In this document: in pieces, positions 2,808 through 33,349 of the stretch
How positions within the stretch are numbered: position 1 is the first letter of the stretch
How the letters are laid out: each line of letters opens with the position of its first letter
Origin: Bacillota bacterium
GTDB lineage: Bacteria > Bacillota > Dehalobacteriia > UBA4068
Reading direction: 5' to 3'
Length of the DNA: 64,000 bases
NCBI GenBank assembly: GCA_030527285.1
Contig: JAUNBC010000007.1
Span: 13,335 to 77,334, forward strand
Notes under the pieces: model-generated
Databases searched by the model: none
What the model saw: the letters and a program-made list of their open reading frames with translations, nothing else
Told to the model about the DNA's origin: nothing
Program-made: the position numbers and the translations under genes

Positions 2808-2881
2808 GCGGGTGTAGCTCAATGGCAGAGCTCCAGCCTTCCAAGCTGGCCACGTGGGTTCGATTCCCATCACCCGCTCCA
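2808..2881 (+). tRNA. tRNA-Gly (anticodon UCC), CCA encoded
   Basis: Acceptor GCGGGTG/CACCCGC, D-arm GCTC..GAGC, anticodon stem CCAGC/GCTGG with loop CTTCCAA, T-arm GTGGG-TTCGATT-CCCAT, 3' TCCA. Confidence 0.9.
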
Positions 2882-3233
2882 TATCAAAGCCCCTTCGGGG
2901 CTTTGATATGGAGTACGACCGGTGGTGTCCAAGCTGCGGTTTTGCGCAGCAAAAGCCAGCTTCAGACCATCACCCGCTCTACCTCTGAAGCTCTAAAGAG
3001 GCTTTGATATGGAGTGCGACCGGTAGTGTCCAAGCTGCGGTTTTGCGCAGCAAAAGCCAGCTTCAGACCATCACCCGTTCTACCTCTAAATCTCTAAAGA
3101 GGCTTTGATATGGAGTACGATCGGTAGTGTCTGAGCTGCGGTTTTGCGCAGCAAAAGCCAGCTTCAGACCATCACCCGCTCTACCTCTGAAGCTCTAAAG
3201 AGGCTTTGATATGGAGTATGATCTGAATACTAT
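2867..3233 (+). repeat. Tandem array of 3.6 x ~101-bp units. Each unit is a tRNA-Gly 3' fragment, a small hairpin and a 39-nt bulged palindrome.
   Basis: CCATCACCCGCTC occurs at 2867, 2967, 3068 (one C>T) and 3169. Palindrome cores are at 2928-2966, 3029-3067 and 3130-3168. The array ends at the tRNA-Arg 5' end. Confidence 0.9.
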
Positions 3234-3310
<77 letters not shown>

Positions 3311-7183: not shown

Positions 7184-7214
7184 GAAAACCAGCATCCTGC
7201 GGATGCTGGTTTTC
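7184..7214 (+). terminator. Rho-independent terminator after tRNA-Pro
   Basis: GAAAACCAGCATCC-TGCG-GATGCTGGTTTTC. Confidence 0.7.
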
Positions 7215-7387
7215 TTTCGCCGCGTATTGAAATAAGCACGCACTAATGATAAGCTATGAAGAGGCATGGGAGGATAAACGACGGAGAAAACGGCATTCTT
7301 CCGCATACCGGCGCATGGGCATAAACAAACACATCTTTGCCTCCGCGCGCATATAATTCTACCACTGATACCGCATAAGGAGCGCTC

Positions 7388-12313: not shown

Positions 12314-12390
12314 GGGGTTATAGCTCAGTTGGTTAGAGCGCCACGTTGACATCGTGGAGGTCATTGGTTCGAGCCCAACTAACCCCACCA
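12314..12390 (+). tRNA. tRNA-Val (anticodon GAC), CCA encoded
   Basis: Acceptor GGGGTTA/TAACCCC, anticodon stem CCACG/CGTGG with loop TTGACAT, T-loop TTCGAGC, 3' ACCA. Confidence 0.9.
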
Positions 12391-12635
12391 TAATTAAAAC
12401 CGCCCTTGGGGGCGGTTTTAATTATGACTGGATCAGGAGTGCCTGAGCTGCGGCTCTGCGAAGCAAAGGCCAGCTTCAGGCCAACTAACCCCACCAGAAC
12501 ACAAGGCCGCCTGCAAAGGCGGTCTTGTGTTTTACTATAATCAGGAGTGCCTGAGCTGCGACTCTGCGAAGCAAAGGCCAGCTTCAGGCCAACTAACCCC
12601 ACCATAATTAAAACCGCCCTTGGGGGCGGTTTTTC
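12375..12635 (+). repeat. tRNA-Val-linked units: 16-nt tRNA 3' fragment, terminator hairpin and 39-nt bulged palindrome, 2.3 copies
   Basis: CCAACTAACCCCACCA at 12375, 12481 and 12589. Cores at 12442-12480 and 12550-12588. Hairpin A at 12391-12424 and 12605-12635; hairpin B at 12497-12532. Confidence 0.9.
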
Positions 12636-12872
12636 TTTCGCCGCGGATTTGCCGCTTGCGGCAAAAAACGCTATCGGCAACCGCCTCCGGCAAAACGAGG
12701 GCGACGGCGGAACGAGTTGAAACGTCCATAAGCATATGATAAAATACAGTTGAAACAGCGCCGTCCATAAGCATTTGTTAAAAGGATTGTTTATCAGGCG
12801 TCGTATAGATATATGCTTTACCTCTCAGCGAAAAGCAAAAGTGCTATACTGTTTATATAATAAGACAGGGGT

Positions 12873-13080
12873 GGGAAGATGCATAACGCTTCTTGCTAAA
12901 TAATAAGGCATCATCGGACGCTCGGGGTGCTTAAAGCGCCTGCTTTTGTTGTGCCTATGCAAGAAGGCTGTCATCTTCCCAAACTCTACACATAGGGCTT
13001 CGTCCGGCCTGTGAGCTGGGCTTTGTTCGTTATGCGGGGTGCGGAAAGCTACTTTCTTGCAGCCCACATTTTTTAGGAGG
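12873..13080 (+). promoter_or_regulatory. Candidate leader-peptide attenuator of the ABC-F gene
   Basis: A 6-codon ORF (MHNASC, 12879-12899) lies inside a long-range helix (12873-12896 pairs with 12959-12980). A GC hairpin (13036-13065) and TTTTTT (13069-13074) directly precede the AGGAGG RBS. Confidence 0.4.
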
Positions 13081-13088
13081 ACAAACGT

Positions 13089-14579
13089 ATGTCGCTGATT
13101 AACGTAGATAATTTGACTTTTGCATATCCGGGAAGCTACGATAATATTTTTGAAAACGTCAGCTTTCAAATCGATACAAACTGGAAACTTGGGTTCATTG
13201 GCAGAAACGGCAGAGGCAAAACGACATTTTTAAACCTGCTTCTTGGAAAATATGAATACAACGGCAGTATTTCAGCCTCGGTCAATTTTGAATATTTTCC
13301 TTATATCGTGGCCGACAATACACGAAACACTATTGATATTATCGAGGGCGTCTGTGCGGGCGTCCTGCACTGGGAGCTGCTGCGCGAGCTGTCCCTGCTT
13401 GATGTTCCGGAGGATGTGTTGCCCCGCCCCTTTTTCACGCTATCCAACGGCGAGCAGACCAAGGTTTTGCTTGCCGTCCTGTTTCTGAAAGAAAATAGCT
13501 TTTTGTTAATCGACGAGCCGACAAATCATCTTGATATTACGGCGCGTTCCATCGTGAGCCGCTATCTGAAAAGCAAAAAGGGATTTATATTAGTATCGCA
13601 TGACAGAGCCTTTTTGGACGGCTGCATAGATCATGTTCTGTCCATCAATAAAGCAAATATTGAAATACAAAGAGGCAATTTTTCCTCCTGGCTGATCAAC
13701 AAGGAGCGGCAAGACAGCTTTGAGCTTGCGGAAAACGAGAGATTAAAAAAAGAGGTGAAGCGACTTCAAAAAACCGTAAGGGAAAAAGCAAATTGGGCGG
13801 ACGCGGCGGAGCGCAAAAAGGTGGGCGTCGATCCAAGCGCGACCGATAATCGCAGTATGGGCAAACGTCCCCTGCAAGGGGCTAAATCCAAAAAGCTCAT
13901 GAAAAAGGCCAAAGCCATTGAAAAACGCCGGGAAGCCGCCGTTGAGGAAAAATCCGGGCAGCTCAAAAACATTGAAAACGCCGACCGTCTGAAAATAGCG
14001 CCGCTTTCTTATTTCACGAGCCGCCTGGCGGAGCTTGCCGACGTTTCTATTTATTATGGCTCCAAAACAGCCTGCGCAGGCGTTAGCTTTACGATAGAAT
14101 ACGGCGACCGCATTGCTCTTACGGGCAAAAACGGAAGCGGGAAATCAAGCGTGCTAAAGCTTATCCGCGGCGAGGATATGATTTATACCGGCACTTTAAA
14201 AAAAGGCAGCCGCCTAATCGTTTCCTATGTTTCACAGGACACTTCATTTTTAAGCGGCAGCCTTTCAGACTACGCTTTGCAAAATGGAATTGAGGAGAGC
14301 CTTTTCAAAGCGACCCTGCGCAAGCTGGATTTTTCAAGGGTGCAATTTGAAAAGGATATGCGCGATTTTAGCGGCGGTCAAAAGAAAAAGGTGCTGCTTG
14401 CAAGAAGCCTTTGCGAAAAGGCCCATCTGTACATTTGGGACGAGCCGTTAAATTACATCGACGTGATCTCCCGTATGCAAATTGAAGATATGATCCTGCA
14501 ATTCAAGCCAACCATTTTGTTTGTCGAGCATGATAGTGCGTTTTGCGGAAAAATCGCAACGAAAGAAGTAAGATTATAG
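13089..14579 (+). CDS. Lsa-type ARE ABC-F ribosomal protection protein (two ABC domains, no TM domain)
   Basis: 496 aa. Motifs DTNWKLGFIGRNGRGKTT, WELLRELSLL, GFILVSHDRAF, FELAENE and LYIWDEPLNY, with a charged inter-domain linker. They align well with my memory of Enterococcus Lsa(A). The gene is AT-richer than the host genes. Confidence 0.8.
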   Translation: MSLINVDNLTFAYPGSYDNIFENVSFQIDTNWKLGFIGRNGRGKTTFLNLLLGKYEYNGSISASVNFEYFPYIVADNTRNTIDIIEGVCAGVLHWELLRELSLLDVPEDVLPRPFFTLSNGEQTKVLLAVLFLKENSFLLIDEPTNHLDITARSIVSRYLKSKKGFILVSHDRAFLDGCIDHVLSINKANIEIQRGNFSSWLINKERQDSFELAENERLKKEVKRLQKTVREKANWADAAERKKVGVDPSATDNRSMGKRPLQGAKSKKLMKKAKAIEKRREAAVEEKSGQLKNIENADRLKIAPLSYFTSRLAELADVSIYYGSKTACAGVSFTIEYGDRIALTGKNGSGKSSVLKLIRGEDMIYTGTLKKGSRLIVSYVSQDTSFLSGSLSDYALQNGIEESLFKATLRKLDFSRVQFEKDMRDFSGGQKKKVLLARSLCEKAHLYIWDEPLNYIDVISRMQIEDMILQFKPTILFVEHDSAFCGKIATKEVRL

Positions 14580-14694
14580 CTTCCCCATATGCGGCGCTGT
14601 ATCTGGCTTCGAGTGGGGCTCCGCCCCCTCGAGGCTCCCCCGGACGGTGCGATACCGTGGTTTAGCATCTGCATCTTTTTGTTGGCACATGACA

Positions 14695-14752
14695 TAATTA
14701 AAACCGCCCTTGGGGGCGGTTTTAATTATGACTGGATCAGAAGTGCCTGAGC
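14695..14752 (+). repeat. Half unit: hairpin A plus spacer plus the first 7 nt of the 39-nt core, no tRNA fragment
   Basis: TAATTAAAACCGCCCTTGGGGGCGGTTTTAATTATGACTGGATCAGAAGTGCCTGAGC matches 12391-12448 almost exactly, then homology stops. Confidence 0.75.
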
Positions 14753-14870
14753 CGCGGCGGCGCTTATGGGCAAGCAGACGGCTTGCCTCTGTCCTTTTGG
14801 ACTGGGGCGCATACCTTTATGTCTGAACGCCGCTATGCGACGCTGGCGCCTGCGCTACACTTCACCGCTT

Positions 14871-15656
14871 TTACACGCTCAGGCAGATGCTGCGTTGGTT
14901 TTGCTTGCGGTCGGTGATGGTTACGACCTGCATGGGGATGCCGTAGACCTGCTCCAGACTCTCGTCGGTCAGCACTTGCTGCGGCGGTCCCAGGCTCAGA
15001 GTCTGACCCTCGCGCATCAGTAGCACCTGCGAGGCGATGGCAAAGGGCTGAGCCGGGTTATGCGTCGTGACGATGACGATCTTGCCCGCGCGAGCCAGCT
15101 CGTTGATGGCGTCGTTGATCAGCTGTTGATTGGCAAAGTCCAGACTGGCCGTGGGCTCGTCCATCATCAGGATACAGGTCTTTTGGCAGAGAGCGCGGGC
15201 GATCAGCACCAGCTGGCGCTGGCCGCCGGACATCTTGAAATAGGGGAAATCCGCCAGATGCTGTATCTTTAGCTGGCACAGGCAGTCATAGGCGATCTCG
15301 ATGTCCTCGGGCTTGGGCGTTTGCATATTGCCCAGATAGGCGGAGCGGGCCATGGTCACCATCTCCAACGCCGTATAAGCGAACATGGCCTGGTCGCGCT
15401 GCGGAATATAGGCAAAATAGCGCGCCATCTGGCGGCGGCTGAGGCGATCCACATCCACGCCGCGGCAGATGATGCGGCCCGCGGTCTTGGGGAGGAAGCG
15501 CAGCAGCAGCTTGAGCAGCGTGGATTTGCCGCAGCCGTTCGGACCCAGCAGGCACAATACGTCTCCGGCGGCCAGTCCGAAGGACAGGCCGTGCACCACT
15601 TCTTTTTTACCGTAGCCGCCACGCAGGTCGCTGACCTGTAATTCCAGCTCCGCCAT
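14871..15656 (-). CDS. Iron-siderophore/cobalamin-type ABC transporter ATPase (FecE/FepC-like)
   Basis: Walker A GPNGCGKSTLLK, signature MSGGQRQ, Walker B ILMMDEPT. Confidence 0.85.
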   Translation of the reverse strand: MAELELQVSDLRGGYGKKEVVHGLSFGLAAGDVLCLLGPNGCGKSTLLKLLLRFLPKTAGRIICRGVDVDRLSRRQMARYFAYIPQRDQAMFAYTALEMVTMARSAYLGNMQTPKPEDIEIAYDCLCQLKIQHLADFPYFKMSGGQRQLVLIARALCQKTCILMMDEPTASLDFANQQLINDAINELARAGKIVIVTTHNPAQPFAIASQVLLMREGQTLSLGPPQQVLTDESLEQVYGIPMQVVTITDRKQNQRSICLSV

Positions 15657-16685
15657 TTAAGCCTTCCCCCTTCTCAAGATCAGCATCACAAAGAACGGCG
15701 CGCCGAACAGGGCTGTAAGCACGCCAATCGGTATCTCCAGCGCCATGAGCGAGCGCGCCAAGTCGTCCATGACCAGCAGGAAGCAGCCTCCCATCAGCGC
15801 CGCCACCGGCAGCATGCGCCTGTAATCGGCTCCGGCCAGACCGCGGGCGATATGCGGCACCATCAGCCCCACCCAGCCGATCAGCCCGCCCAGACAGACC
15901 GCGCCGGCTGAAATGATGGTAGCGGCCAGAATGGCGGCCAGCCGCACCTTGCGCGGATCCACGCCGATGGCCATGGCCTCCTCGTCGCCCAGAGTCAGCA
16001 GGTTGAGCCGCCAACGCAGCAGGAACAGCGCCAGCATGCCCAGAGCCATCGGCGTAAGGCTAAACAGCAGGTCCGAGGTATCGACCTTGGATAACGAGCC
16101 CATCAGCCAGTAGGTGATGGCTGGCAGCACGTCGTTGGGGTCGGCCACATACTTGATAACTGTGATAGAGGCGTTGCACAGCTCGCGCAGCATGGTACCA
16201 GCCAGCACCAGACTGACAGCCTGACCGAATTTGGCGCGCGAGCCGATCAGGTAGGTCAAAAACACGGTGACCACGCCGAAGCAAAAAGCTGCGGCCTGCA
16301 CGCCAAAGCTGCTCCAACCCAGCAGCAGAGCCAGACAGGCGCCGAGCCCCGCGCCCTGCGACACGCCGAGAATATCCGGCGAGACGAGCGGGTTCTTGAA
16401 CATGCCCTGATAGGCCGCGCCGGCCACGGCCAGACCGGCGCCGATCAAAAAGGCGGCGGCGATGCGCGGCACGCGGATATTGCGCACGATGACCGGGATA
16501 TTGGGCTCGACCGCCTCCGCTCCGTGCAGCAGATAGGCGTAGATCTGTTGCAGCGTGGCGCCGTAGAAGCCGATATTCAGGGACAGCAGCGGCAGCAGCA
16601 GGCTCAGGGCTATCAGCAGCGGCAGCAGCCAGGGTCGCCGGAGCCGGGCCACGCCCGCCGGCAGCGTTGTTTGATGCTTGCTCAT
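15657..16685 (-). CDS. FecCD/BtuC-family ABC permease
   Basis: About 340 aa from the internal Met MSKHQTTLP. Around 9-10 TM segments with Gly-rich FecCD-type motifs. The upstream 24 codons of the track ORF lack support. Confidence 0.8.
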   Translation of the reverse strand: MSKHQTTLPAGVARLRRPWLLPLLIALSLLLPLLSLNIGFYGATLQQIYAYLLHGAEAVEPNIPVIVRNIRVPRIAAAFLIGAGLAVAGAAYQGMFKNPLVSPDILGVSQGAGLGACLALLLGWSSFGVQAAAFCFGVVTVFLTYLIGSRAKFGQAVSLVLAGTMLRELCNASITVIKYVADPNDVLPAITYWLMGSLSKVDTSDLLFSLTPMALGMLALFLLRWRLNLLTLGDEEAMAIGVDPRKVRLAAILAATIISAGAVCLGGLIGWVGLMVPHIARGLAGADYRRMLPVAALMGGCFLLVMDDLARSLMALEIPIGVLTALFGAPFFVMLILRRGKA

Positions 16686-16796
16686 TTTCACTATAGTCAA
16701 AAAAGAATATTGTTTGCGGGAAATAATTCTTTCTAAGAATAATCTATTTTGCCGCATTTGTCAATCGGCACCCGGATAACTCCATTCAACGTATAG

Positions 16797-16857
16797 TTGA
16801 CAAATCGTGCGCCGCCTATTATACTAATCTCAGAATATATATGTAAGTATATATTCT
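16797..16857 (+). promoter_or_regulatory. Consensus promoter with a perfect 10-6-10 inverted repeat operator or leader hairpin
   Basis: TTGACA (16797-16802), 17 nt, TATACT (16820-16825), then AGAATATATA-TGTAAG-TATATATTCT (16832-16857). Confidence 0.5.
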
Positions 16858-16892
16858 CACGAAAAGAGAATAGAAGAGAGAGGAGAACGAAA

Positions 16893-17981
16893 ATGAAACA
16901 CAAGCTATTGATGCTGCTGCTCTGCCTGCTGCTCAGCCTGTGCCTGCTGGCCGCCTGCGCTCAGACGCAGGAACCGGCGGTTGACGAGCAGGAGCAGGAA
17001 CAGCCTGAGGCGACGACGCGCGAGCTCGTCGACATGGCTGGGCGCACCATCACCCTGCCATCAGAAGTGGCCACCGGTCTTGGCACCGGCGCCATCGGCA
17101 GCTACATGCTCTACACACTGGATCCGGACACCATGGTCGGCGTCAACTATGAGTTCAACGACCAGGAGAAGGCCTATATCCTCGAAGCCTACCATGACCT
17201 GCCCAGCTTTGGCCAGGGCGACGGCTTCAACCTTGAAGCCGTGGTGGCCGCCGCGCCGGATGTGCTGATCAACTACGGCTCCGTCAACGACGCCACCATC
17301 AGCTCGGCTGACGACATTCAGGCTCAGACCGGTATCCCCTGCGTGGTGCTGAACAGCGATATGGAAGAAACGGCAGCCGCCTACCGCATGCTGGGCGAGA
17401 TCTTCGGCATGCCGGAGCGGGCTGAGGAGCTGGCTGTCTATGCTGAAGAAGCCCTGGCCTTCGCGGAGTCCATCGATATCCCCGAAGAAGAACGGGTCAG
17501 CGTCTATTTCGGCAATGGACTGGAAAATCTGGAGACGGCGCCGGTCGGTTCCTGGCACGCTAGCCTGCTGGAGCTGGTTGACGCCATCAACGTGGCCGTG
17601 GTCGAAGGCGAGGTCACGAACCGTATCGACGTCAGCGCTGAGCAGGTCATCGGCTGGAATCCCGAGGTGGTGCTGCTCAACGGCGAACCGACGGAGGATC
17701 TCTCGCCTGTTCAGGCCGTGGAAGCCTTCCTGGCCGATGCGCGCTACCAGAACGTGCAGGCTGTGGTCAACGATCAGGTCTATGCCATCCCTAAATATCC
17801 CTACTCCTGGTTTGACCGTCCTCCCGGACCCAACCGCCTCATCGGCATCTATTGGCTGGCCGAGCTGCTGTATCCGGAGAATTTCGATCTGGATATCAAG
17901 GCTGAGGCGCGCGAATTCTACGCCCTTTATTATCATATGGAGCTCAGCGACGAGCAGCTCGTCGACCTGTTAGGCTACTGA
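16893..17981 (+). CDS. Periplasmic-binding-protein (class III, siderophore/B12-type) lipoprotein
   Basis: An internal ATG after GAGAGGAGAA gives MKHKLLMLLLCLLLSLCLLAAC (lipobox), followed by an acidic linker and a PBP fold. Confidence 0.8.
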   Translation: MKHKLLMLLLCLLLSLCLLAACAQTQEPAVDEQEQEQPEATTRELVDMAGRTITLPSEVATGLGTGAIGSYMLYTLDPDTMVGVNYEFNDQEKAYILEAYHDLPSFGQGDGFNLEAVVAAAPDVLINYGSVNDATISSADDIQAQTGIPCVVLNSDMEETAAAYRMLGEIFGMPERAEELAVYAEEALAFAESIDIPEEERVSVYFGNGLENLETAPVGSWHASLLELVDAINVAVVEGEVTNRIDVSAEQVIGWNPEVVLLNGEPTEDLSPVQAVEAFLADARYQNVQAVVNDQVYAIPKYPYSWFDRPPGPNRLIGIYWLAELLYPENFDLDIKAEAREFYALYYHMELSDEQLVDLLGY

Positions 17982-18070
17982 TCCCCGCTTGAAATAGCGG
18001 TAAAGGTGATTGCCCTTGTTACACACACTGGAGAATAACTGCGTCTTTTTTGCACGCACATGACGCAACA

Positions 18071-18100
18071 AAAAGCCATCCTTTGAGGATGGCTTTTTGC
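18071..18100. terminator. Bidirectional terminator hairpin
   Basis: AAAAAGCCATCC-TTTGA-GGATGGCTTTTT. Confidence 0.6.
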
Positions 18101-18117
18101 TATGGTGATTGGCAGCG

Positions 18118-18278
18118 TCTGAGCTGCGGCTCGGCGAAGCAAAGGCCAGCTTCAGGCCAACTAACCCCACCAGAACACAAGGCCGCCTGCAAAGGCGGTC
18201 TTGTGTTTTACTATAATCAGGAGTGCCTGAGCTGCGGCTCTGCGAAGCAAAGGCCAACTTCAGGCCAACCAACCCCGC
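18118..18278 (+). repeat. Distal tRNA-Val-linked units: core, 16-nt fragment, hairpin B, core, degenerate fragment
   Basis: Cores at 18118-18156 and 18226-18264. CCAACTAACCCCACCA at 18157-18172. Hairpin B at 18173-18208. CCAACCAACCCCGC at 18265-18278. Confidence 0.9.
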
Positions 18279-18441
18279 TTCATCGTTTCGCTGGCCAATT
18301 TCTTGCGTTCCGGCGTGTACCGCTTATTCGGTACTTGCTTTGGAAATAGCGACGCCCCATTTGTTTTTCAGTATGCAATACTGTCAAACGAATAGGGCGC
18401 CATTTATCATTTCTTACATATGTTTATTCTCATTAGGTTCG

Positions 18442-19446
18442 CTAAACTCTGATCAGTTTGAGAATATTACCGGTTTTATGAAAATTCAGCGTTTGTATAT
18501 AAAGATTTCCTTGCTCATCGCCGCAGATCCCATGCGCCATCAAAGGAGAATTTTCATAACCAAGCTGCGATACGATATTCATATCCATATCAAGAATAGT
18601 AATACCGCCGTCCACCTCGCCAACGAAAACATTTTCTGTATTGGCCCAAATATCCGCTGGTTTATAAATCAAATCCTTTATCACGGCAAGTAGTTCGCCT
18701 GCGGTAGAAAAAACTTGTATACGGCTGTTTTCCCTATCTGCTAACCACAGGCGCTCCATCCTATCTATCCATAAACCATGGGGCAAACGAAACTCCCCAT
18801 CATTGTTTCCGGGATTGCCCCATGTCTTGGTCAACGTGCCGTCAGCGGAAAACTTGTGTATCGCGGCATTACCATAGCCATCGGCGGCAAAAAAATCTCC
18901 CGTTGATGATTCTATCATTTTAGCCGGTTGATTAAAGGGCGCTCCGGTACGCTTGATAGTTCTTAATCCATCAACTGGAGAAAAAGCAGCGTTAAAATGT
19001 ATGTCGTTCGGTATCCCATATTCCCTTTTGAGCCAAGAACAAACGTCCTGCTCATATCCGGTATCAGAAGGATGATTTATAACGCCAAAATCGCGCAGCA
19101 GTTGGCCATCAGCATCAATTTCACGCACGATATGCCGCTTTTTATCGGTACACAATACCGTGTTGCGCGGCGTAACAAATATTCCGTGCAAATCATCGCT
19201 AAACAAGCCTTGCCCCAAAGACTGCTGATAATTGCCGTTAGCATCAAAGACGATAATCGGATTGTTTATATCGCGAGTTGATACGTACAAATTGCCGCGG
19301 CAATCAAAACAGCCGGAGACTACCGTACTTTTTCTCAGATATTCGGGCCATTTCGCCCAGCCGCAATCCAATTTATAGGAGAAGCCCCTATTACTAAAAA
19401 CCACATCGGCTTCCGCCGTCCGGTATTTATTACCGTATATGTCCAT
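18442..19446 (-). CDS. NHL-repeat six-bladed beta-propeller, peptidyl-alpha-hydroxyglycine alpha-amidating lyase (PAL)-like
   Basis: 334 aa. The stretch GDFFAADGYGNAAIHKFSADGTLTKTWG..GEFRLPHGLWID..LWLADRENSRIQVF parallels, from my memory of rat PAL, GAVFVSDGYCNSRIVQFSPSGKFVTQWG..GQFSVPHSLAL..LCVADRENGRIQCF. Three HG motifs (H87, H223, H305), DGY191 and ADR238EN. Confidence 0.7.
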   Translation of the reverse strand: MDIYGNKYRTAEADVVFSNRGFSYKLDCGWAKWPEYLRKSTVVSGCFDCRGNLYVSTRDINNPIIVFDANGNYQQSLGQGLFSDDLHGIFVTPRNTVLCTDKKRHIVREIDADGQLLRDFGVINHPSDTGYEQDVCSWLKREYGIPNDIHFNAAFSPVDGLRTIKRTGAPFNQPAKMIESSTGDFFAADGYGNAAIHKFSADGTLTKTWGNPGNNDGEFRLPHGLWIDRMERLWLADRENSRIQVFSTAGELLAVIKDLIYKPADIWANTENVFVGEVDGGITILDMDMNIVSQLGYENSPLMAHGICGDEQGNLYIQTLNFHKTGNILKLIRV

Positions 19447-19617
19447 TCACGTGAACCTCCCGCTTGTTTTCACTAAAAAGAAAGGGCGACGCCTATCTGC
19501 GCCACCCTCCTTTTTAGCTCAGACGCCCTGTTCATCCATAATCTGTGCTTTTCTATCCTATGGAAAAAAGAGGGGACGTATTAAATCAATGAATTTCCGC
19601 AAAACCTTACGGCTAAA

Positions 19618-21015
19618 CTATGCTTTCCTGTTTGCCATATGGCTCCATACCGGCTTGCCCCAATGCTTTGTTCCGCTGGCCTCCGGATCGACCACGCCTT
19701 CATCCATTACTACTTTGCCTCTCAGGATAGTGTAATTAAGCTTGCATCCTAAAATGTCGTCATCGTAGATCTTGGTATTGGGTGTAAACTCACAACGCAT
19801 TTGATCGTGCAAATCAAAAATCACCAGATCGCCATCAGAGCCCGGTTGTATAACCCCTTTTTGCGGATAAATATTGAAGCATTTTGCGGGGTTCTCACAA
19901 CATAGCTGAACTACTCTCTCCAGCGTTATACCACGCTCTCCTTTAACTACTTCGTTTATCATCAGCGGCAACCGCAGGTTTATGCCTTGAAACCCTGATA
20001 TACCCAAGAAAATATTTTCGTTACCTCTTTCATTCTCTTCTCTTGTGTCGTCGCCATGATCGCTGCCGATCCAATCGACAGTTCCGTCTAAGACGTATTC
20101 CCATATGGCGTCGATAGTCTCCTGGTTTCGCAGAGGCGGGTTGCATTTTCCGTAAGCCTTATGCTTGACTACTTCTTCTTCTGTTTTGAGAAGATAATGC
20201 GGGCAAGTCTCCAAGAAAACTTTTTTGTTTTTAGCTTTGGCTTCTTTCGCCATTTGCATAGCTTCCGGCGTAGAGATATGAGCCAGAAGCAGGGCGCAAC
20301 CCGTTGCATCGGCAATCGTCATCAGCTTTTGCACTTCCAAGTATTCAGATATGGGCGGTCTGGACAAAGAATGATACTTTCCGTCCACCTTGCCCTCGCT
20401 GATAAACTTGTTTATCAAACTGCTGATTATATCATTGTTCTCCGCGTGCGAAGCCAGCATTAAGCCTGTTTTGGCGATTTCCGTCATACCCACTAACACT
20501 TCATAATCTGTGGACATGGTCAAGCCAGTAAATTCTTTTTCCCTTCCCGGAAGCGGTTCATGCAAAAATGTCTTATATGCTATCGCGCCCGCCTCCGCTA
20601 AGTCAACGATATTTTCGGGAAACTCTCCGCCGGCAGCCCCATAAAACGCATAGTCTACAACGCTACCGCGCTCTTCAACAACTTTAAACCTGTTCAAAAA
20701 GATATCTTTATTATACGGCGGAGGCGAGGAAACCGGATGCTCAAGAATGGTGGTCGTGCCGCCTCTTGCCGCCAACATCGATTCCGAATCCCATTTAGCC
20801 CGTCCCGGAATGGTGGGATCACGAAAATGGACATGGGGATCGATACCGCCAGGGATAACATATTTACCTTCGGCATCGATCGTTTTCTCCGCTTTCGGTA
20901 AACAACCCGGCTCCGTGATCATCGCAAATTTTTCGTCTTTGATGCCAATGTCGACTTTCTTAAATACTCCGCCAACATATGCCGTACCATTAATGACCGC
21001 AAGATCTAATTCCAT
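19618..21015 (-). CDS. Cyclic amidohydrolase (allantoinase/hydantoinase/dihydropyrimidinase family)
   Basis: 465 aa. Metal ligands in family order: HVHFRD, AYKTF (carbamylated Lys), ASHAE, LAHIS, GSDHG. Confidence 0.8.
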   Translation of the reverse strand: MELDLAVINGTAYVGGVFKKVDIGIKDEKFAMITEPGCLPKAEKTIDAEGKYVIPGGIDPHVHFRDPTIPGRAKWDSESMLAARGGTTTILEHPVSSPPPYNKDIFLNRFKVVEERGSVVDYAFYGAAGGEFPENIVDLAEAGAIAYKTFLHEPLPGREKEFTGLTMSTDYEVLVGMTEIAKTGLMLASHAENNDIISSLINKFISEGKVDGKYHSLSRPPISEYLEVQKLMTIADATGCALLLAHISTPEAMQMAKEAKAKNKKVFLETCPHYLLKTEEEVVKHKAYGKCNPPLRNQETIDAIWEYVLDGTVDWIGSDHGDDTREENERGNENIFLGISGFQGINLRLPLMINEVVKGERGITLERVVQLCCENPAKCFNIYPQKGVIQPGSDGDLVIFDLHDQMRCEFTPNTKIYDDDILGCKLNYTILRGKVVMDEGVVDPEASGTKHWGKPVWSHMANRKA

Positions 21016-21057
21016 TTTTGGCCCCCCGATTCATTTGGTTTCTGCAAACAATCTTTG

Positions 21058-22092
21058 CTATTCCGCATTTAATAGATTAACGTATATCTCATACACTTCG
21101 GGGTCAACATTTTCTTCGATCAACGGCCAAGTGGTTTTTGCCAGATCAGCAAAAGCCTGTCTTTGTTCCTCCGTCAGATCAACAAAGATGATGCCTGCTT
21201 CTTCAAGTAATTCTCTGCTTTCCACCAAGCCCGCATCGGCAAATTCCCTTGACCAGTCAAACGCGACAGCGGCGGCTTCGTTCAGCAGCTGTTGAATATC
21301 CGCCGGCAAAGAATTCCAGAATTCCAGATTGATGATAATCGGGCAGGTAAGATGAATATGACTCGTCATGGTCACGTACTTTTGCTGCTCATAATACTTG
21401 TCGAAATAAATCGATTGCAGCGGATTTTCCTGAGCGTCAACAATCCCTTGCTGCAAAGCCACATAAATCTCACTTCCGGGTATCGGCGTCGGGTTGGCGC
21501 CCATAGCCTGCCAGGCCGCTATATGATACTTATTATCCATCGTTCTAAGAGTTAAGCCGTTCAAATCCTCCGGAGTTTCGATCATTATATTTGAGGACAA
21601 TTCTCTAAAATGCCCGTCAGTAATGCCCATCAACTTAATTCCAGCCGCCTCGTATTTCTCGTTGAGGATGGCTAACAATTCCGGATCAGCGATAACTTCT
21701 CTGGCATGTTCAGCGCTCTTATAAGCAAACGCCATGTCAAAGATCGCCAGATCGGGAATGAAGTTAGCCTGCGCCGCGGCAGTACCCACATGCATGGTAA
21801 CGCTGCCAGTCTGAAGCCCCTCGATGATCTCTCTTTCCGAGCCAAGCTGAGCGTTAGGATATACGCTGACTACAACCCGACCATCGGCATGCTCATCAAT
21901 GTATTCCTTAAACTTGATGCAATACTGCGAAACTGTTGTTTCCTCGGCGCTGCCGGTTGCTAAAATCATTTCATATACGGTCGCATCATCTACAACCGCC
22001 TCACCGCTGTCAGCGGGATCGTCTGTGGCGCAAGCTGCAAATACTAACGCGACCAAGACTAAAGCAAATAATAAGCCAATCATTTTTTTCAT
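21058..22092 (-). CDS. dctP: TRAP transporter substrate-binding protein (DctP family), lipoprotein
   Basis: Start MKKMIGLLFALVLVALVFAAC after GGAAGGTG, followed by a DctP-type fold. Track start 22113 is an alternative. Confidence 0.8.
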   Translation of the reverse strand: MKKMIGLLFALVLVALVFAACATDDPADSGEAVVDDATVYEMILATGSAEETTVSQYCIKFKEYIDEHADGRVVVSVYPNAQLGSEREIIEGLQTGSVTMHVGTAAAQANFIPDLAIFDMAFAYKSAEHAREVIADPELLAILNEKYEAAGIKLMGITDGHFRELSSNIMIETPEDLNGLTLRTMDNKYHIAAWQAMGANPTPIPGSEIYVALQQGIVDAQENPLQSIYFDKYYEQQKYVTMTSHIHLTCPIIINLEFWNSLPADIQQLLNEAAAVAFDWSREFADAGLVESRELLEEAGIIFVDLTEEQRQAFADLAKTTWPLIEENVDPEVYEIYVNLLNAE

Positions 22093-22333
22093 TTTTTTCA
22101 CCTTCCCATACATTATTTTTTGATATTCAATACCGTTTTGCGCTTATGCTTCATCGAATAATCATTTTTCATACCTCCCAGCAAAAATTATTATCCAAAA
22201 TACATCCAGTACCATATAGAATATACGTTCGTTGCAAGCATCAGTTATCTACTTAACAACAACTTTTAACCTGTATCATTATTGCGCACGCTGCGAGGAT
22301 TACACTCAGCGTCTAAGCGCCCCTGACGAGAAA

Positions 22334-23623
22334 TCATTTGAGCAGCACTAAGCTTAATTCCGGAATAAATGTTACGATCAGCAACGCCACAATAAATGAA
22401 ATAATAGCCGGTACAGCTTTTTTGGCAATAGACAGCACCGGTACGTCGCTTATCCTGCTTGCCACAAATAAGTTAGCGCCAATGGGCGGTGTAATGAAGC
22501 CTATGGCAAAAGTAATTACCATTACGACGCCAAAGTGAATCGGGTCTATACCTACTGCGTTTACTATTGGCATACAGATCGGCGCAAGGATCATGATCGC
22601 AACCAGGCCATCCATAAGCATACCCACAATCGTGCAGAAGCCAATGAGTATTAAGAACACTCCAACCGGCGTTGATACCATAGACAGCAAAGTTTCTGTT
22701 AATTGCTGCGGCACCTGCATCAAGGTAAGCACTCTCCCGAAAACCAGTCCCGCAGACATTATCACCATTAACGGACCAATAGAGCATATGGAGTCTTTAG
22801 TAACTCGAATAATGTCCTTGATACTTAACGAACGATAAATAAAGCATCCAACTATCAGAGCATAAACAACTGAAACGTCTGCTGCTTCTGTAGGAGTGAC
22901 GATGCCGCCATAAATACCGCCAAGGATTATTACCGGTGATAATAGCGCCCAAAAACTGTTCTTGAACAGCTGCCAGAAGCTCATCTTTCGTAATTCAACG
23001 TAGTTCTCCAGCAGTTTTTCTTTATCTTCGCCCTTTTTCTTGCAATAGTAATAGGCGTACAGCATCATGCACAAACCCATGATTATGCCCGGAATAATAC
23101 CGGCAATAAACAGGTCGCCCACAGACTCCCCTGTCGCAACACCAAAAACGATAAACGGAATGCTTGGGGGAATGATTACCCCCAAAGAACCAGCGACGGC
23201 TACAATGGCAACTACCCAATTCTTTTCGTACCCGAAATTGACCAAAATCGGGATTGTCATAACGCCGACCGCCGCTACTGTAGCCCCTGCGGAACCACAG
23301 ATAGCGCCATAAAACAAACAGGTGGCAATGATCGCTATCGGCAACCCGCCTGTTTTATTACCGGCAAAATATGCAATAAAATCGAATATCTTTTTTGATA
23401 TACCGCTGGCTGCCATCAGGTTTCCGGATAAAACAAAAAGCGGTATTGCAAGCAAGGTGAACGAATCGATACCTGTTATCATACTGCGGAAAACATATAC
23501 GGCGTCAGCTGCAAATGACGGCAGCACCATAGACGGAACCAGCGAAGATAAGGCTATCGAAATACCAATAGGTACTCCCACCAGTAAAGTAATCAAAAAA
23601 ACCGCAAACACATATGCTGTCAC
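22334..23623 (-). CDS. dctM: TRAP transporter large permease (DctM)
   Basis: 429 aa, about 12 TM segments, typical DctM composition. Start abuts the dctQ stop. Confidence 0.85.
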   Translation of the reverse strand: MTAYVFAVFLITLLVGVPIGISIALSSLVPSMVLPSFAADAVYVFRSMITGIDSFTLLAIPLFVLSGNLMAASGISKKIFDFIAYFAGNKTGGLPIAIIATCLFYGAICGSAGATVAAVGVMTIPILVNFGYEKNWVVAIVAVAGSLGVIIPPSIPFIVFGVATGESVGDLFIAGIIPGIIMGLCMMLYAYYYCKKKGEDKEKLLENYVELRKMSFWQLFKNSFWALLSPVIILGGIYGGIVTPTEAADVSVVYALIVGCFIYRSLSIKDIIRVTKDSICSIGPLMVIMSAGLVFGRVLTLMQVPQQLTETLLSMVSTPVGVFLILIGFCTIVGMLMDGLVAIMILAPICMPIVNAVGIDPIHFGVVMVITFAIGFITPPIGANLFVASRISDVPVLSIAKKAVPAIISFIVALLIVTFIPELSLVLLK

Positions 23624-24111
23624 TAATCCGCCCTCCTTTGACTAAATCTATAAAGCTTTTTAATATATTTCTCAATAAATCTGACTAAAGAAAAGAAAAT
23701 CCCCACCAGAAAAGACAAATATACTAAATACATGGGAATACTGAGGGCGGCGCTGGTTTGATTGCTGTTGATTAGATAATTTATCACTTCTATTCCCGGC
23801 TTTATCATATATACGATAAAAACGACAAATAAGATATCGCCAAATATTAATAAGAATTTTTTTGTTTTCGGGAAAAAAGACTCTACTAAATCCAGCCGGA
23901 TGTGAGTGTTGTTATTGATCCCGTAGCTAAGCGCCAAAAAAGAAAACCAAATGAAAATGTATCTCGACAGTTCGTCAGACCAAGATAAAGATGAATGGAA
24001 AACATACCTCATTATGACAGATATGCCCATGATCAATACTATTGCCCATAAGGCGCTGCCCATAATTATCCCTTCAAAATTATCGTCAATCCATTTTAAG
24101 GCTTTTTTCAT
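23623..24111 (-). CDS. dctQ: TRAP transporter small permease (DctQ)
   Basis: Internal start MKKALKWIDDNFEG after AGGAGGAGAAAA. Four TM segments, about 162 aa. Confidence 0.75.
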   Translation of the reverse strand: MKKALKWIDDNFEGIIMGSALWAIVLIMGISVIMRYVFHSSLSWSDELSRYIFIWFSFLALSYGINNNTHIRLDLVESFFPKTKKFLLIFGDILFVVFIVYMIKPGIEVINYLINSNQTSAALSIPMYLVYLSFLVGIFFSLVRFIEKYIKKLYRFSQRRAD

Positions 24112-24193
24112 TTTTCTCCTCCTGTGCTCAGATCCTGTACTCAGATAATAGCCGCCATTATACAATCAGCACGAGAAATAATTCTGGGGTCCA

Positions 24194-25393
24194 TCAAATA
24201 TCCGCTTCATCGATCCTGATAATAGTTTCCAATAATAAATCAGTTCCTATCTTGATATCTTCCATTGCCGAAAACTCTTCAGGACTATGGCTGACGCCAT
24301 TCTTACTGGGCACAAATATCATTACCGTAGGCACATGCAAGCCAAATTCCTTCGCGTCATGCCCTGCGGAGCTGCCCATGGTTTTATATTTCTGGCCATT
24401 TTCTTTGCATATGCTCTCTACTATGTCTACTAAACGCTCATCCATGGCCACGGCCGGTTTATAAACGTGCAGGTTGTAGCTGATCTTGCATCTGGTTTCT
24501 TTATTAGCTTCCTTCTGTACTTCGCAAATGAATTCTTCCATATTCTTTGAGCTAAAATCTCTAATCGAAAGAGATAATTCCACTCGTCCGGGAATAACAT
24601 TAGACGCATTTGGAAACACGTTTAATTCTCCCACCGTCCATACAAAAGGATGTGGATACTTTTTGGCTATCTCTTCAACTTTACATAGAAACTTGGCCGC
24701 GCACATGACCGCGTCTTTTCTTTTATTCATGGGCGTGCAGCCGGCATGATTGGCTTCGCCAATTATTGTAATATGGTACGTCATGATCCCAACTATGTTA
24801 TTCACAATACCCACCGGGATGCGCTCATCGTCGAGCACTTTCCCTTGCTCGATATGCAGCTCCAAAAAAGCCTTGATTTTGGAAGTATCTGCTCTCAACT
24901 CTAAAACGCGGGGATCAATGCCGAGCTTCTGTAATTCTAACAAAACCTCTTCCGTTTGGGTGTTCTCGCGGCCTAACAAAACCCTGCTGCTGAAGCACCC
25001 GCCTAATTCGGGTAGTTCTTCACAGTTTAAGGCAATTATTTCCAGAGGATGCCGCGTATAGTATGAATTATCATTCAACGTATTAAGACATTCCAACGCC
25101 GCTGCGACGCCTAAGTTGCCGTCAAAAATGCCGCCATTTACAACCGTGTCCAAATGTGAACCTAATACGATCGCCGGCAGATCGTTATTCTTACCCTCTC
25201 TTCTGCCGATTACATTTCCCAGTTCATCCATATGCACCGTCAGATTTGCGGCCTTCATCTGTTGTGCCAAGACTTCTGCGGCTTGATAGTATTCTTTACT
25301 CCAGGCAACTCTGGTAATACCGCCATGCTCGTTTTTGCCGATATTACCTACTGCGTAAAGATTTTTTTCTAATCTAAAAATATTGGTCTCCAT
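24194..25393 (-). CDS. M20-family amidase, allantoate amidohydrolase/N-carbamoyl-amino-acid hydrolase type
   Basis: Start METNIF after AGGAGG. GGITRVAWSKEY..VLGSHLDTVVNGGIFDGNLGV is typical of the AllC/AmaB (hydantoinase/carbamoylase) family. Confidence 0.8.
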   Translation of the reverse strand: METNIFRLEKNLYAVGNIGKNEHGGITRVAWSKEYYQAAEVLAQQMKAANLTVHMDELGNVIGRREGKNNDLPAIVLGSHLDTVVNGGIFDGNLGVAAALECLNTLNDNSYYTRHPLEIIALNCEELPELGGCFSSRVLLGRENTQTEEVLLELQKLGIDPRVLELRADTSKIKAFLELHIEQGKVLDDERIPVGIVNNIVGIMTYHITIIGEANHAGCTPMNKRKDAVMCAAKFLCKVEEIAKKYPHPFVWTVGELNVFPNASNVIPGRVELSLSIRDFSSKNMEEFICEVQKEANKETRCKISYNLHVYKPAVAMDERLVDIVESICKENGQKYKTMGSSAGHDAKEFGLHVPTVMIFVPSKNGVSHSPEEFSAMEDIKIGTDLLLETIIRIDEADI

Positions 25394-25530
25394 TTTTCCT
25401 CCTGCTTTCACGGTATGAATGCGCCATCTTTATTTCGAACACAAACCCGGCAGCAATGAAAGAGCAAATAATTATCTTGGTTATTGACGCCTCAGACAAA
25501 CTATCGAATTAAAGACTCCAAATGCCATTA

Positions 25531-26550
25531 TCATATTTTATATATCCAACCTGCGGGCGCTTCGATATCACCTGTTTGAATACCAAACAGGGTATCATAC
25601 AGCTTGGTAATCACAGGGCCGGCCTCTGTTTCGCTATAAAACACATGCGGATTGCCTCGATACTCCAAACGACCGATAGGAGTTGCAAGCTTAGCCGTTC
25701 CGCATATGCCCGCCTCCGCCAATTGGTCAATTTTATCAATATAAATGTCCGTTTCAAGCGCTTCCATCGCACAATAATCGCGTGCAACTTGCATCAATGA
25801 CATTTTTGTTATACCGGGTAGTATCGACGGCGAGTATGGCGTTACAAACTTGTTGTCCTTGGTAACGCCAAAGAAATTGGCTCCGCCGGCTTCATCAATT
25901 TTTGTATGAGTAACCGGGTCGAGAAACAGGCAACCGGCAAACCCCCTACTCGCAGCCTCAGCATTAGCCTGCAAGCTGGCTGCGTAATTACCGCCGACCT
26001 TTATAGCGCCCGTACCATGCGCAGCCGCCCGATCCTGTTCGGTTACTATATAATTCACGGGACGCAATTTATCTTTATACCCCGACCCGACAGGCAGCAC
26101 AAATATAGAAAAGATATACTCCGACGCAGGTTTAGAACCTATATTATCGCCAATGCCAATAATATAAGGACGCAAATATAAGGTCGCCCCGGAACCATAA
26201 GGGGGGATCCATGCTTCATTCGCCCTTACAACCTGTGCGCAAGCTTCGATGAACTTCTCTGTCGCAACAGTCGGCATTAAAAGCTTTTCGCAGCCTCGCT
26301 GCATACGCTTTGCGTTTTCATCTGGCCGGAATAATTGTATGCCGCCATCTTGTGTGCTATAAGCTTTAAGGCCTTCGAAGCATTCCTGCGCATAATGCAA
26401 ACAGGTCGATCCTTCGCTGATAGTAATTTTATTGTCCTCGACAAGCTGGCCGTCATCCCAGCGGCCGTTTCGCCAATATGAAATATATCTCTTATCTGTT
26501 TTGATATAGCTAAAACCCAATTCCGACCAATCAATGTCTTTTTTTTGCAT
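25531..26550 (-). CDS. ilvE: Branched-chain-amino-acid aminotransferase (fold type IV, long form)
   Basis: 339 aa. Contains CFEGLKAY, YLRPYIIG, GGNYAAS and GITK, which match class-IV BCAT motifs. Confidence 0.8.
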   Translation of the reverse strand: MQKKDIDWSELGFSYIKTDKRYISYWRNGRWDDGQLVEDNKITISEGSTCLHYAQECFEGLKAYSTQDGGIQLFRPDENAKRMQRGCEKLLMPTVATEKFIEACAQVVRANEAWIPPYGSGATLYLRPYIIGIGDNIGSKPASEYIFSIFVLPVGSGYKDKLRPVNYIVTEQDRAAAHGTGAIKVGGNYAASLQANAEAASRGFAGCLFLDPVTHTKIDEAGGANFFGVTKDNKFVTPYSPSILPGITKMSLMQVARDYCAMEALETDIYIDKIDQLAEAGICGTAKLATPIGRLEYRGNPHVFYSETEAGPVITKLYDTLFGIQTGDIEAPAGWIYKI

Positions 26551-26603
26551 ACTGTTCTCCCTTTATATTACCTCTGACATAAAACCCGATATCGGTGTCC
26601 AGA

Positions 26604-27791
26604 TTAACGGCCGTTATAAACAGCCAAAGCCGCTTCAATACCTTGTCCCACGGAAACCTTGAATTTCTGATCTAACAAAGCATCGCTCAAGGCTGCTAAT
26701 AACTGTATAACGTTGTTCCTTTTTGATGATTCTCCCATCAGGCCAACTCTCCATGCCTTGCCCTTGAAATCTCCAAGCCCTCCGCCGATTTCAATGCCGT
26801 ATTTGGTCAGCAAAAAGCTCCGTACCAAAGCATCGTTGACTCCATCGGGAATATTGACCGCGTTTAAGGTAGGCAGCCGGTGTTCTTTATTTTTAACCGT
26901 CATGCTGAGGCCCATTGCCTCGATGCCGGCAACAAAAGCGTCGGAATTCAACTGATGCCTGGCAAAGCGCGCCGTTAGCCCTTCTTCATACACCATCAGC
27001 AAAGCCTCTCTCAGTCCATAAACCATATTGATAGGCGCCGTATGATGATATAATCTCTCCTGGCCCCAATAATTCTTAATCATATTTAGATCAAAATACC
27101 AACTGCTGACTTTAGTTTTTCTATTGCCGATAACCTCCACTGCCTTATCGTTAAAAGTTACTGGAGATAAACCGGGCGGGCAACTCAGAGCCTTCTGCGT
27201 ACCGCTATAACAAGCGTCTATACCCCATTCATCAATTTTTAACTCCACGCCGCCTAAAGAAGTAACCGCATCAACAACAAACAGAGCATTATACTCTTTA
27301 GCGATTTCCGATATCTTCTCCAAGGGCTGTTTAACGCCGGTAGAAGTTTCCGCATGAACAATAGCGACCAATTTGATATCCTTATGCGCTTTAAAAGCCT
27401 CGCGTACTTTTTCCGGATCGATCGCTTCACCCATACTCGCTTCCACGCTAACGACCTTTGCGCCAAACCGCCCGGCCGCATCTCTAAGCCTTTCGCCAAA
27501 AACGCCACACACACAAATAATTACTTTATCCCCTGGTTCTATCAAATTGACCATTACCGTTTCCATACCGGCGCTTCCCGTTCCGGACATCGGTAAAGTC
27601 AGCGCATTTTTTGTTTGAAAAACATATCTTAACAATTCCATGCTTTCATTAGCAATTTCGAAAAAATTGGGATCTAAATGCCCATACAAAGGGTGAGACA
27701 TTGCGCTTAGAACCCGTGGCGATACTTCCACCGGCCCCGGCCCTAATAATAATCTATACTCGGATGATAATTGCGCGTACTGCTTTTTCAA
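26604..27791 (-). CDS. Class V aminotransferase (alanine/serine-glyoxylate, PucG-like)
   Basis: LLLGPGPVEV N-terminus and SGTQKAL (PLP Lys) motif. Best start is a TTG at 27791, 7 nt after GGAGGTG; the track ATG at 27824 is an alternative. Confidence 0.8.
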   Translation of the reverse strand: MKKQYAQLSSEYRLLLGPGPVEVSPRVLSAMSHPLYGHLDPNFFEIANESMELLRYVFQTKNALTLPMSGTGSAGMETVMVNLIEPGDKVIICVCGVFGERLRDAAGRFGAKVVSVEASMGEAIDPEKVREAFKAHKDIKLVAIVHAETSTGVKQPLEKISEIAKEYNALFVVDAVTSLGGVELKIDEWGIDACYSGTQKALSCPPGLSPVTFNDKAVEVIGNRKTKVSSWYFDLNMIKNYWGQERLYHHTAPINMVYGLREALLMVYEEGLTARFARHQLNSDAFVAGIEAMGLSMTVKNKEHRLPTLNAVNIPDGVNDALVRSFLLTKYGIEIGGGLGDFKGKAWRVGLMGESSKRNNVIQLLAALSDALLDQKFKVSVGQGIEAALAVYNGR

Positions 27792-28046: not shown

Positions 28047-28090
28047 AAAAAACAAGTCGGGAAAGCTTTTTTCATCGCTTGCCCGACCGA
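28047..28090 (-). terminator. Terminator after the IclR gene
   Basis: Minus strand: GTCGGGCAAGC-GATGAAAAAA-GCTTTCCCGAC followed by TTGTTTTTT. Confidence 0.5.
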
Positions 28091-32611: not shown

Positions 32612-32635
32612 TTTGTTCCCCCTCCCTTACTATAT

Positions 32636-33068: not shown

Positions 33069-33085
33069 GGCGGAGAGGGCGGGAT
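33069..33085 (-). repeat. Displaced copy of the tRNA-Ser 3' end (17 nt) with its own terminator hairpin (33032-33068)
   Basis: GGCGGAGAGGGCGGGAT equals 33262-33278 inside tRNA-Ser. It is followed on the minus strand by GCGTCGGAGCAAGGTATGCTTTGCTCCGACGCTTTTT. Confidence 0.85.
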
Positions 33086-33260
33086 AATGGGCACGGGACA
33101 AGTTTTGTCCTCGGGTATTACCGCTGATGTGAGAGCTACGCCGCTCAGCGCGTGGTTCGCGCAAACATGCCACCGGCATGTTTGCGCTCCCATTCGAATC
33201 CCTACGATCTTTTCTGCCAAACAAAAATACCCCATCAAAAACCGATGGGGTATTTTTGTT

Positions 33261-33349
33261 TGGCGGAGAGGGCGGGATTCGAACCCGCGTGGGATTGCTC
33301 CCAAACTGATTTCGAGTCAGCCCCGTTATGACCACTTCGATACCTCTCC
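33261..33349 (-). tRNA. tRNA-Ser (anticodon CGA), long variable arm, CCA encoded
   Basis: Minus strand: GGAGAGG..anticodon stem GCTGA/TCAGT with loop CTCGAAA..variable arm TTGGGAGCAATCCCAC..GGGTTCGAATCCC..CCTCTCCGCCA. Confidence 0.9.

Follow-up and report, generated by a model that had tools for sequence, protein, structure and literature searches.

The closest described systems are the tRNA-linked repeats (TLRs) of E. coli, which were described in 1978 (Egan & Landy 1978; Rudd 1999) and include RtT/rttR of the tyrT operon and rrA, rrB and rrF behind 5S rRNA (PMC8144298). There are 22 units at ten loci, with one to five units per locus. They are transcribed and processed; the three TLRs behind 5S rRNA are processed small RNAs between two terminators, and three TLRs bind Hfq and CsrA (PMC8144298). 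Still, no origin and no general function of TLRs has been accepted, and most of them have no known function (PMC8144298). As far as we found in the literature, they have apparently been studied in enterobacteria only. Repeated tRNA or tmRNA gene ends are also known from integrated elements. The ssrA islands of Dehalococcoides have a conserved motif of the element end (TTCAGRSMGMRKCCA) in front of each 20-bp repeat and a junction in the T-loop (PMC3146451), and the tandem accretion of CIMEs in the ICESt1 family has been reviewed (PMC5704250).

Here we analysed a window of 64,000 nt (64 kb) of a contig from a metagenome-assembled Bacillota bacterium, in which tandem copy numbers are as assembled. 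The feature under study has the architecture of tRNA-linked repeats, which is already known, but the family itself is new, not homologous to that of E. coli and located in a distant phylum. Its units are built on a cassette of ~90 nt, which is made up of a hairpin or terminator whose first bases are the CA of the CCA end, an arm of ~11 nt and a bulged hairpin of 41 nt (the core). Each cassette is flanked on both sides by the last 13-16 nt of the preceding tRNA gene (Table 1). With moderate confidence, we consider that these units are best explained as a lineage-specific family of tRNA-linked repeats, in which a non-coding cassette of this size was placed at tRNA 3′ ends. A sequence-only reading of the same DNA had found it surprising that one module carries the end of the nearest tRNA each time; this is a known property of the E. 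coli TLRs and is not unprecedented.

Table 1. Features of the tRNA-associated arrays in the 64-kb window. Arm+core matches and the truncated core copy are those of the covariance model.
Feature	Position	Strand	Remarks
tRNA-Gly(UCC)	2808..2881	+	Anchor of Gly-type array; ARAGORN, Rfam
First hairpin 3′ of tRNA-Gly	2877..2914	+	-32.4 kcal/mol; overlaps CTCCA end; without U-tract
Gly unit 1: arm + 41-nt core hairpin (2917-2966) + tRNA-Gly end CCATCACCCGCTC (2967-2979)	2917..2979	+	Arm+core match 2917-2968; core hairpin starts at about 2927
Gly unit 2: arm + core + tRNA-Gly end, one mismatch	3018..3080	+	Arm+core match 3018-3069; core hairpin starts at about 3028
Gly unit 3: arm + core + tRNA-Gly end	3119..3181	+	Arm+core match 3119-3170; core hairpin starts at about 3129
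tRNA-Arg	3234-3310		Preceded by partial fourth Gly repeat
tRNA-Val(GAC)	12314..12390	+	Anchor of Val-type array; ARAGORN; Rfam 65.9 bits
Terminator A (hairpin A)	12391..12424	+	-26.2 kcal/mol
Val unit A: arm + core (12431-12480) + 16-nt tRNA-Val end (12481-12496)	12431..12496	+	Arm+core match 12431-12482; core hairpin starts at 12441
Terminator B (hairpin B)	12497..12532	+	-29.1 kcal/mol
Val unit B: arm + core + 16-nt tRNA-Val end	12539..12604	+	Arm+core match 12539-12590; core hairpin starts at 12549
Truncated terminator A	12605..12633	+	Left copy of 31-nt direct repeat bracketing lsa segment
Low-GC insert with Lsa-family ABC-F resistance gene (13089-14579) and leader	12634..14692	+	NCBIfam NF000167, 712 bits
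Partial unit: CA + terminator A + arm + first 12 nt of core, then unrelated DNA	14693..14757	+	Truncated core copy 14735-14794
Val unit X: variant arm + core + 16-nt tRNA-Val end	18107..18172	+	Arm+core match 18107-18158; core hairpin starts at 18117
Second copy of terminator B	18173..18208	+
Second Val unit B: arm + core + degenerate fragment CCAACCAACCCCGCTT	18215..18280	+	Arm+core match 18215-18266; core hairpin starts at 18225; match stops after AACCCC, where low-GC island starts
tRNA-Ser(CGA) (33261-33349) + terminator + ~125-nt structured unit + 17-nt tRNA-Ser end copy (33069-33085)	33069..33349	-

The units within each locus are near-identical tandem copies (95-98% identity within the Gly or the Val array), with a period of 101 nt in the Gly array and of 106/108 nt in the Val array. 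In the metagenome assembly three copies lie behind tRNA-Gly, two behind tRNA-Val and two in a third, Val-type cluster at 18.1 kb. The covariance model of arm and core matched seven full copies (73-82 bits) and one truncated copy, in agreement with the seven cores counted earlier, and nothing beyond these in the 64 kb. All copies are on one strand, the full ones at three clusters of tRNA fragments, and the chance expectation for the core is 0.00. The 16-mer of the tRNA-Val end (CCAACTAACCCCACCA) occurs four times, at 12375, 12481, 12589 and 18157, with a chance expectation of 0.02; all 16 of 16 nt have thus been copied three times. The sequence-only reading had pointed out the repeats at 12481 and 12589, to which the copy at 18157 is now added. 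The two 68-nt Val copies (ATCAGGAGTG, hairpin and fragment) are 97% identical, and 18119-18276 is 97.5% identical to 12443-12600. In the Gly array, CCATCACCCGCTC equals the 13 nt preceding the terminal CA of tRNA-Gly and is found directly 3′ of every Gly-type core. These fragments lack CCA, as they end in …GCTCTACC and not in …GCTCCA. In all arrays the fused fragment stems from the array's own tRNA, over 13 nt for Gly and 16 nt for Val.

Arm and core of the Gly and Val types are ~85% identical, and their similarity stops abruptly at the T-loop/T-stem boundary, where the tRNA-specific fragment starts. The hairpin after the CCA of tRNA-Gly aligns to terminator A with a score that was exceeded by none of 2000 shuffles. 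Since the whole unit is homologous at both tRNAs and the flanking duplicate is always the local one, it appears that a cassette was placed and not a large island, and that this happened at tRNA 3′ ends at least twice (Gly and Val loci). The homologous units behind the two tRNAs bear out the proposal of the sequence-only reading that a ~90-nt module, and not a large island, is the repeated unit.

The units might also be decayed tandem tRNA copies, in which the 5′ two-thirds degenerated while gene conversion held the 3′ end identical. Tandem tRNA genes are common, and the core closes with GCTTCAGR, which has a weak likeness to a T-loop. However, the same core stands behind the unrelated tRNAs for Gly and Val, its boundary is abrupt and not gradual, and ARAGORN and the Rfam tRNA model (E values up to 10) found no tRNA in the units. 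This very improbable reading is close to refuted. An assembly artefact or chance repeat is hardly credible at all. The source is a metagenome-assembled contig, and independent Logan contigs of the same sample break near the tRNA loci, but the copies are told apart by point substitutions and by having either terminator A or terminator B, divergence between the Gly and Val types is 15% and includes compensatory changes, and both the 16-mer and the core are far outside the chance expectations given above. In these short-read contigs (SRR24915838) the breaks are located within tRNA-Val (contig end) and about 100 nt 3′ of tRNA-Arg (contig start), which is consistent with repeats at tRNA loci breaking the assembly. 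Arrays of this type break short-read assemblies, and island finders based on fragments of tRNA genes would be misled by them.

The core differs between the Gly and Val types at six positions. Four of the five differing stem positions form two compensatory pairs, both from U-A to C-G. In a simulation, six random substitutions gave at least two compensatory pairs with P about 0.004, and the core hairpin has therefore been kept as a structure. Both strands of the core fold equally well and the tally of wobble pairs is mixed, so an assignment of the functional strand from wobble pairs or stability was dropped. That the core is an intrinsic terminator was ruled out, since neither strand has a U-tract.

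For comparison, five TLR loci of E. coli K-12 were re-examined. The extra copies of the tRNA end number four for Tyr, three for Arg and five for Lys, and the Tyr, Arg, Lys and 5S units have a common core, AACGTTGC-NNNN-GCAACGGCCCGAAGGGCGA, which is followed by a locus-specific end. The Bacillota units resemble these TLRs in several ways. Firstly, like the TLR units of about 100-180 nt, they lie directly behind a tRNA gene (in E. coli a tRNA or rRNA gene) and are co-oriented with it (here in the Gly-Arg spacer and behind tRNA-Val), and in both organisms some units are found between tRNA genes of one operon. Secondly, each unit closes with the duplicated 3′ end of the gene that precedes it. Thirdly, one hairpin core is used across loci with different tRNA ends, in one to five tandem units (here three, two and two). 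The rrnB arrangement, 5S end-T1-core-5S end-T2, matches the Val arrangement, and both families have units between two terminators (rrnB T1-TLR-T2 and lysQ-terminator-TLR in E. coli).

The two families also differ. The copied end is 13-16 nt here compared to 18-19 nt in E. coli. Unlike in E. coli, the Gly copies lack CCA, and inserted genes (5.5 kb) have come to lie between one cluster and its tRNA. Complementarity of the 5′ arm to the copied end is significant in E. coli (3-26 of 5000 shuffles), whereas here it was not better than with shuffled arms. The phylum differs as well, as the present family belongs to an uncultured Bacillota. Rfam models including RtT (RF00391) had no match in the units at E values up to 10, a model of the E. 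coli TLR core matched no module in the window, and the covariance model of the module matched none of the E. coli TLRs (best 11.5 bits, E 0.9). At 15 of 16 positions the Val core has the same apical hairpin (CTGCGAAGCAAAGGCC, 12455-12470) as the rrnB TLR (TTGCGAAGCAACGGCC, 365-380 of the rrnB sequence), but this match, TGCGAAGCAA(C/A)GGCC, is not significant, and homology was rejected with the models in both directions. A second family with the same architecture and unrelated sequence in a distant phylum indicates that the design recurs. It provides a comparative handle on the origin of the units, be it att identity, target-site duplication or RNA selection.

The units are delimited by direct repeats of the tRNA 3′ end, with the junction at the T-loop/3′ part, and could accordingly be seen as ordinary attL/attI/attR scars. 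Larger elements of the ICE, IME or prophage type would then have integrated serially at tRNA-Gly and tRNA-Val and decayed to their arms, where the hairpin is the P′ arm and arm plus core the P arm, and the recombinase would be lost or located elsewhere in the genome. Such integration classically leaves direct repeats of a tRNA 3′ end beginning at the T-loop/T-stem boundary, the cores end in GCTTCAGR right before the fragment, which can be compared to the TTCAG motif in Dehalococcoides, and accretion of decayed cis-mobilizable elements is documented. The stretch 12605-18156 holds cargo between two fragments, a low-GC island abuts the fragment at 18277 and a tRNA-Ser fragment adjoins this island. 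The likeness to ssrA islands and CIMEs comprises serial 3′-end repeats, a T-loop junction, a conserved motif starting with TTCAG directly upstream of each repeat, units that persist without an integrase, and resistance or metabolic cargo between repeats.

However, ssrA islands are multi-kb elements, many of which have a recombinase module beside attL, whereas six of the seven units here consist of only ~90 nt of hairpins and contain no ORF, and it is unlikely that independent deletion led to the same minimal extent twice. There is no integrase or mobility-gene remnant in the 64 kb: a Pfam search of about 52 ORFs, which comprise housekeeping and transport genes, found no recombinase or transposase domain, and the earlier statement that the window has no recombinase stands. 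The Gly units are situated inside a tRNA-Gly/tRNA-Arg pair only 352 nt apart, and E. coli TLRs of the same design are found behind 5S rRNA too. No larger element carrying the core was found in GTDB representatives, JGI metagenomes, IMG/VR, PLSDB and INPHARED (one 22-nt pattern; BLAST). We conclude that the units are not ordinary att scars in the simple sense, and consider that reading rather unlikely. The units do not fit REP/BIME or IS200/IS605-derived hairpin repeats, since the core is found on one strand only, at the three clusters of tRNA fragments and in one truncated copy, and the window encodes no Y1 transposase. Integron attC sites and IS200/IS605 ends were rejected as well, because no integrase or transposase is present and the copies lie only beside tRNA fragments. 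By eye, neither an R-box nor terminal inverted repeats were seen on the units.

The Val locus contains, in this order, tRNA-Val, terminator A, arm plus core, fragment, terminator B, arm plus core, fragment, truncated terminator A, the lsa segment, a partial unit, a siderophore-type ABC transporter and the cluster at 18107-18280. Of the two alternating hairpins described by the sequence-only reading, both are present and A does recur after the second fragment, but this recurrence is truncated (12605-12633). Terminator A recurs also at 14693-14727. The third cluster lies about 5.5-5.7 kb from tRNA-Val, displaced by inserted genes. The lsa segment (2.06 kb, 47% GC) has a 31-nt direct repeat of terminator A at both sides (12603-12633 and 14693-14723). 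The nearest Lsa relatives are 82% and 77% identical and have only the leader and the gene in common with it, while the flanks differ. Since these flanks contain neither terminator A nor the module, the modules are not part of an lsa unit, and that possibility was ruled out.

The lsa gene encodes an Lsa-family ABC-F ribosomal-protection protein of the lincosamide/streptogramin A type. Its leader contains a 22-nt direct repeat, CGTCCATAAGCAT.TG.TAAAA (12723-12744 and 12762-12783; 91% identical, 39 nt apart), that overlaps a promoter-like site at 12717-12745 and may be a duplicated promoter or operator. A 15-mer, TTTTCTTTCGCCGCG, is found at 7210-7224, behind tRNA-Pro, and at 12631-12645, at the left edge of the lsa segment, both times after a terminator stem; with a BLAST E value of 0.01-0.025, it may be due to chance or be a trace of a common downstream context.

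A block of ~15 kb (about 18280-33200) with 37-47% GC, compared to 57-65% in the backbone, extends from the last Val fragment to the 3′ end of tRNA-Ser, which is encoded on the opposite strand. All its genes are on the minus strand and encode an NHL protein, an amidohydrolase, a TRAP transporter, an M20 peptidase, aminotransferases and IclR, as well as a 381-aa protein without assignment and an HTH protein. The block resembles a genomic island that has neither an integrase nor matching repeats at its ends; no partial Val fragment was found at its far end. Breakpoints of foreign DNA lie inside units at 12633/4, 14692/3, 14757/8 and 18276/7, so the arrays are either prone to recombination or tolerant of insertions. 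They are the lodging site of an lsa-type resistance gene and of the 15-kb island.

In the lineage-specific family that we favour, placement would be a duplicative recombination at the T-loop/3′ end of a tRNA gene. Two routes may be envisaged. In the first, a site-specific recombinase would use a short identity (att) to the tRNA end; in the second, insertion would duplicate 13-16 bp of the target. The placing enzyme would be encoded elsewhere or now be lost. The second route recalls casposons, which reportedly integrate at the 3′ ends of tRNA genes and produce target-site duplications of 14-15 bp. Here, too, an insertion at a tRNA 3′ end would be flanked by a target duplicate of 13-16 bp, and a casposon-like target duplication would explain why each copy has the end of the local tRNA. 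However, no Cas1 or polymerase gene was found, the cassette has ~90 nt while casposons have several kb, and we know of no miniature casposon derivative of this kind. Two arguments speak against a moving cassette: for most transposases, 13-16 bp would be a long duplication, and a circle of 100 bp is a poor substrate for an integrase. Moreover, parallel deletions in larger elements could have given rise to both the Gly and the Val units. For the att route, the Dehalococcoides ssrA islands would offer good precedent (PMC3146451).

The arrays would be built and remodelled by unequal crossing-over and by serial insertion at the additional tRNA ends. Serial insertion would explain the alternation of A and B units, for which unequal crossing-over would not be enough by itself. 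Because of their additional tRNA ends and hairpins, the arrays may have become recombination-prone, and in this way the lsa segment and the island could have become lodged there. We further considered, as a speculative extension that is probably wrong, that the cassette is a miniature non-autonomous mobile element which inserts at the tRNA CCA end and duplicates its last 13-19 nt, and that the E. coli TLRs are an independent product of the same mechanism. If this were true, tRNA-linked repeats would be a general, convergently arising class of bacterial mobile DNA, and it would be explained why each copy carries the end of the gene before it.

Relatives of the family were searched for in several collections. 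The core pattern GCGNAGCAAANGCCAGCTTCAG, a single 22-nt pattern that diverged relatives could escape, gave only chance matches in coding DNA among GTDB species representatives, JGI metagenomes and IMG/VR. In plasmids (PLSDB) and phages (INPHARED), BLAST with the Val array gave nothing relevant, and no relative was found in protein collections. When spurious ORFs that cross the arrays were used as baits, only the body of a tRNA-Val in another contig, which is a decayed tRNA fragment, and two long repetitive proteins matched. Of the proteins that were looked up, none had a relative of >90% identity among about 15 billion sequences, and the nearest relatives of the homoserine dehydrogenase (69% identity) lack the tRNA-Gly/Arg neighbourhood. 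Since no relative was found in these collections, mobility is deduced from two loci in one MAG, and with a family from one contig every conclusion on mobility is limited to that extent.

The orientation and position of the units raise the question of whether they act as RNA. Since the units contain no promoter-like site and the Gly spacer is free of terminators, they are probably transcribed passively, which would happen only by read-through from the tRNA promoter, as in E. coli TLRs. A functional small RNA of the tRNA operon could arise if the read-through transcript were cut at the copied end and a stable hairpin with a regulatory, decoy or protein-binding role were released, in parallel to RtT and RrA/B/F in E. 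coli. In favour of this, the hairpin is maintained by compensatory changes, every unit has the orientation of the tRNAs, the Gly units occupy a tRNA-tRNA spacer that has no terminator, and the Val units lie between two terminators, like rrB between T1 and T2 of rrnB. Transcription and processing of E. coli TLRs and the binding of three of them to Hfq and CsrA, as mentioned above, would fit as well (PMC8144298). Still, we consider such a role improbable. Terminator A is strong and the Val units would need read-through, pairing between arm and fragment does not exceed chance, the two strands do not differ in how well they fold, CCA is absent from the Gly fragments and there is no Rfam match. Moreover, conservation of the family does not extend to any other sampled organism, and most E. 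coli TLRs have no known function either (PMC8144298).

The sequence-only reading had also suggested an RNA that mimics a tRNA. Folding of the Gly type gave a 7-bp in-register stem between the arm and the copied tRNA end, but the duplex energies were no better than those of shuffles. Pairing of arm and fragment had a p of about 0.4 compared to shuffled arms, and swapped Gly/Val combinations pair as well. Since arm pairing is at chance level, the tRNA-mimic reading has no statistical support in the window. ARAGORN and the Rfam tRNA models are blind to the units, and a tRNA-like minihelix was rejected as unsupported after the shuffle and swap controls.

Before tRNA-Arg, at 3206-3233, there is a promoter-like site (TTGATA-16-TACTAT), which is built on a repeated segment, GCTTTGATATGGAGTA. 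The same segment opens each Gly unit, where arm and core replace the -10 part.

Lastly, the tRNA-Ser locus at the other border of the island looks like a tRNA-linked unit with a different core. The copy of the tRNA-Ser end lies 176 nt downstream of tRNA-Ser and is followed by a second terminator. The structured unit that precedes this copy has a 13-bp perfect hairpin (z -2.5), and its core differs from the Gly/Val core. The terminator region of tRNA-Ser (53 nt) is duplicated exactly 414 nt further on (region 32796-33349, minus strand). The ~180 nt after the tRNA-Ser fragment (33067-32894, minus strand) are 81% identical to a stretch upstream of an lsa homologue in another MAG of the same sample, GCA_030527165.1 (at 104-282 of the compared sequence), and may be a small dispersed intergenic element common to different organisms.
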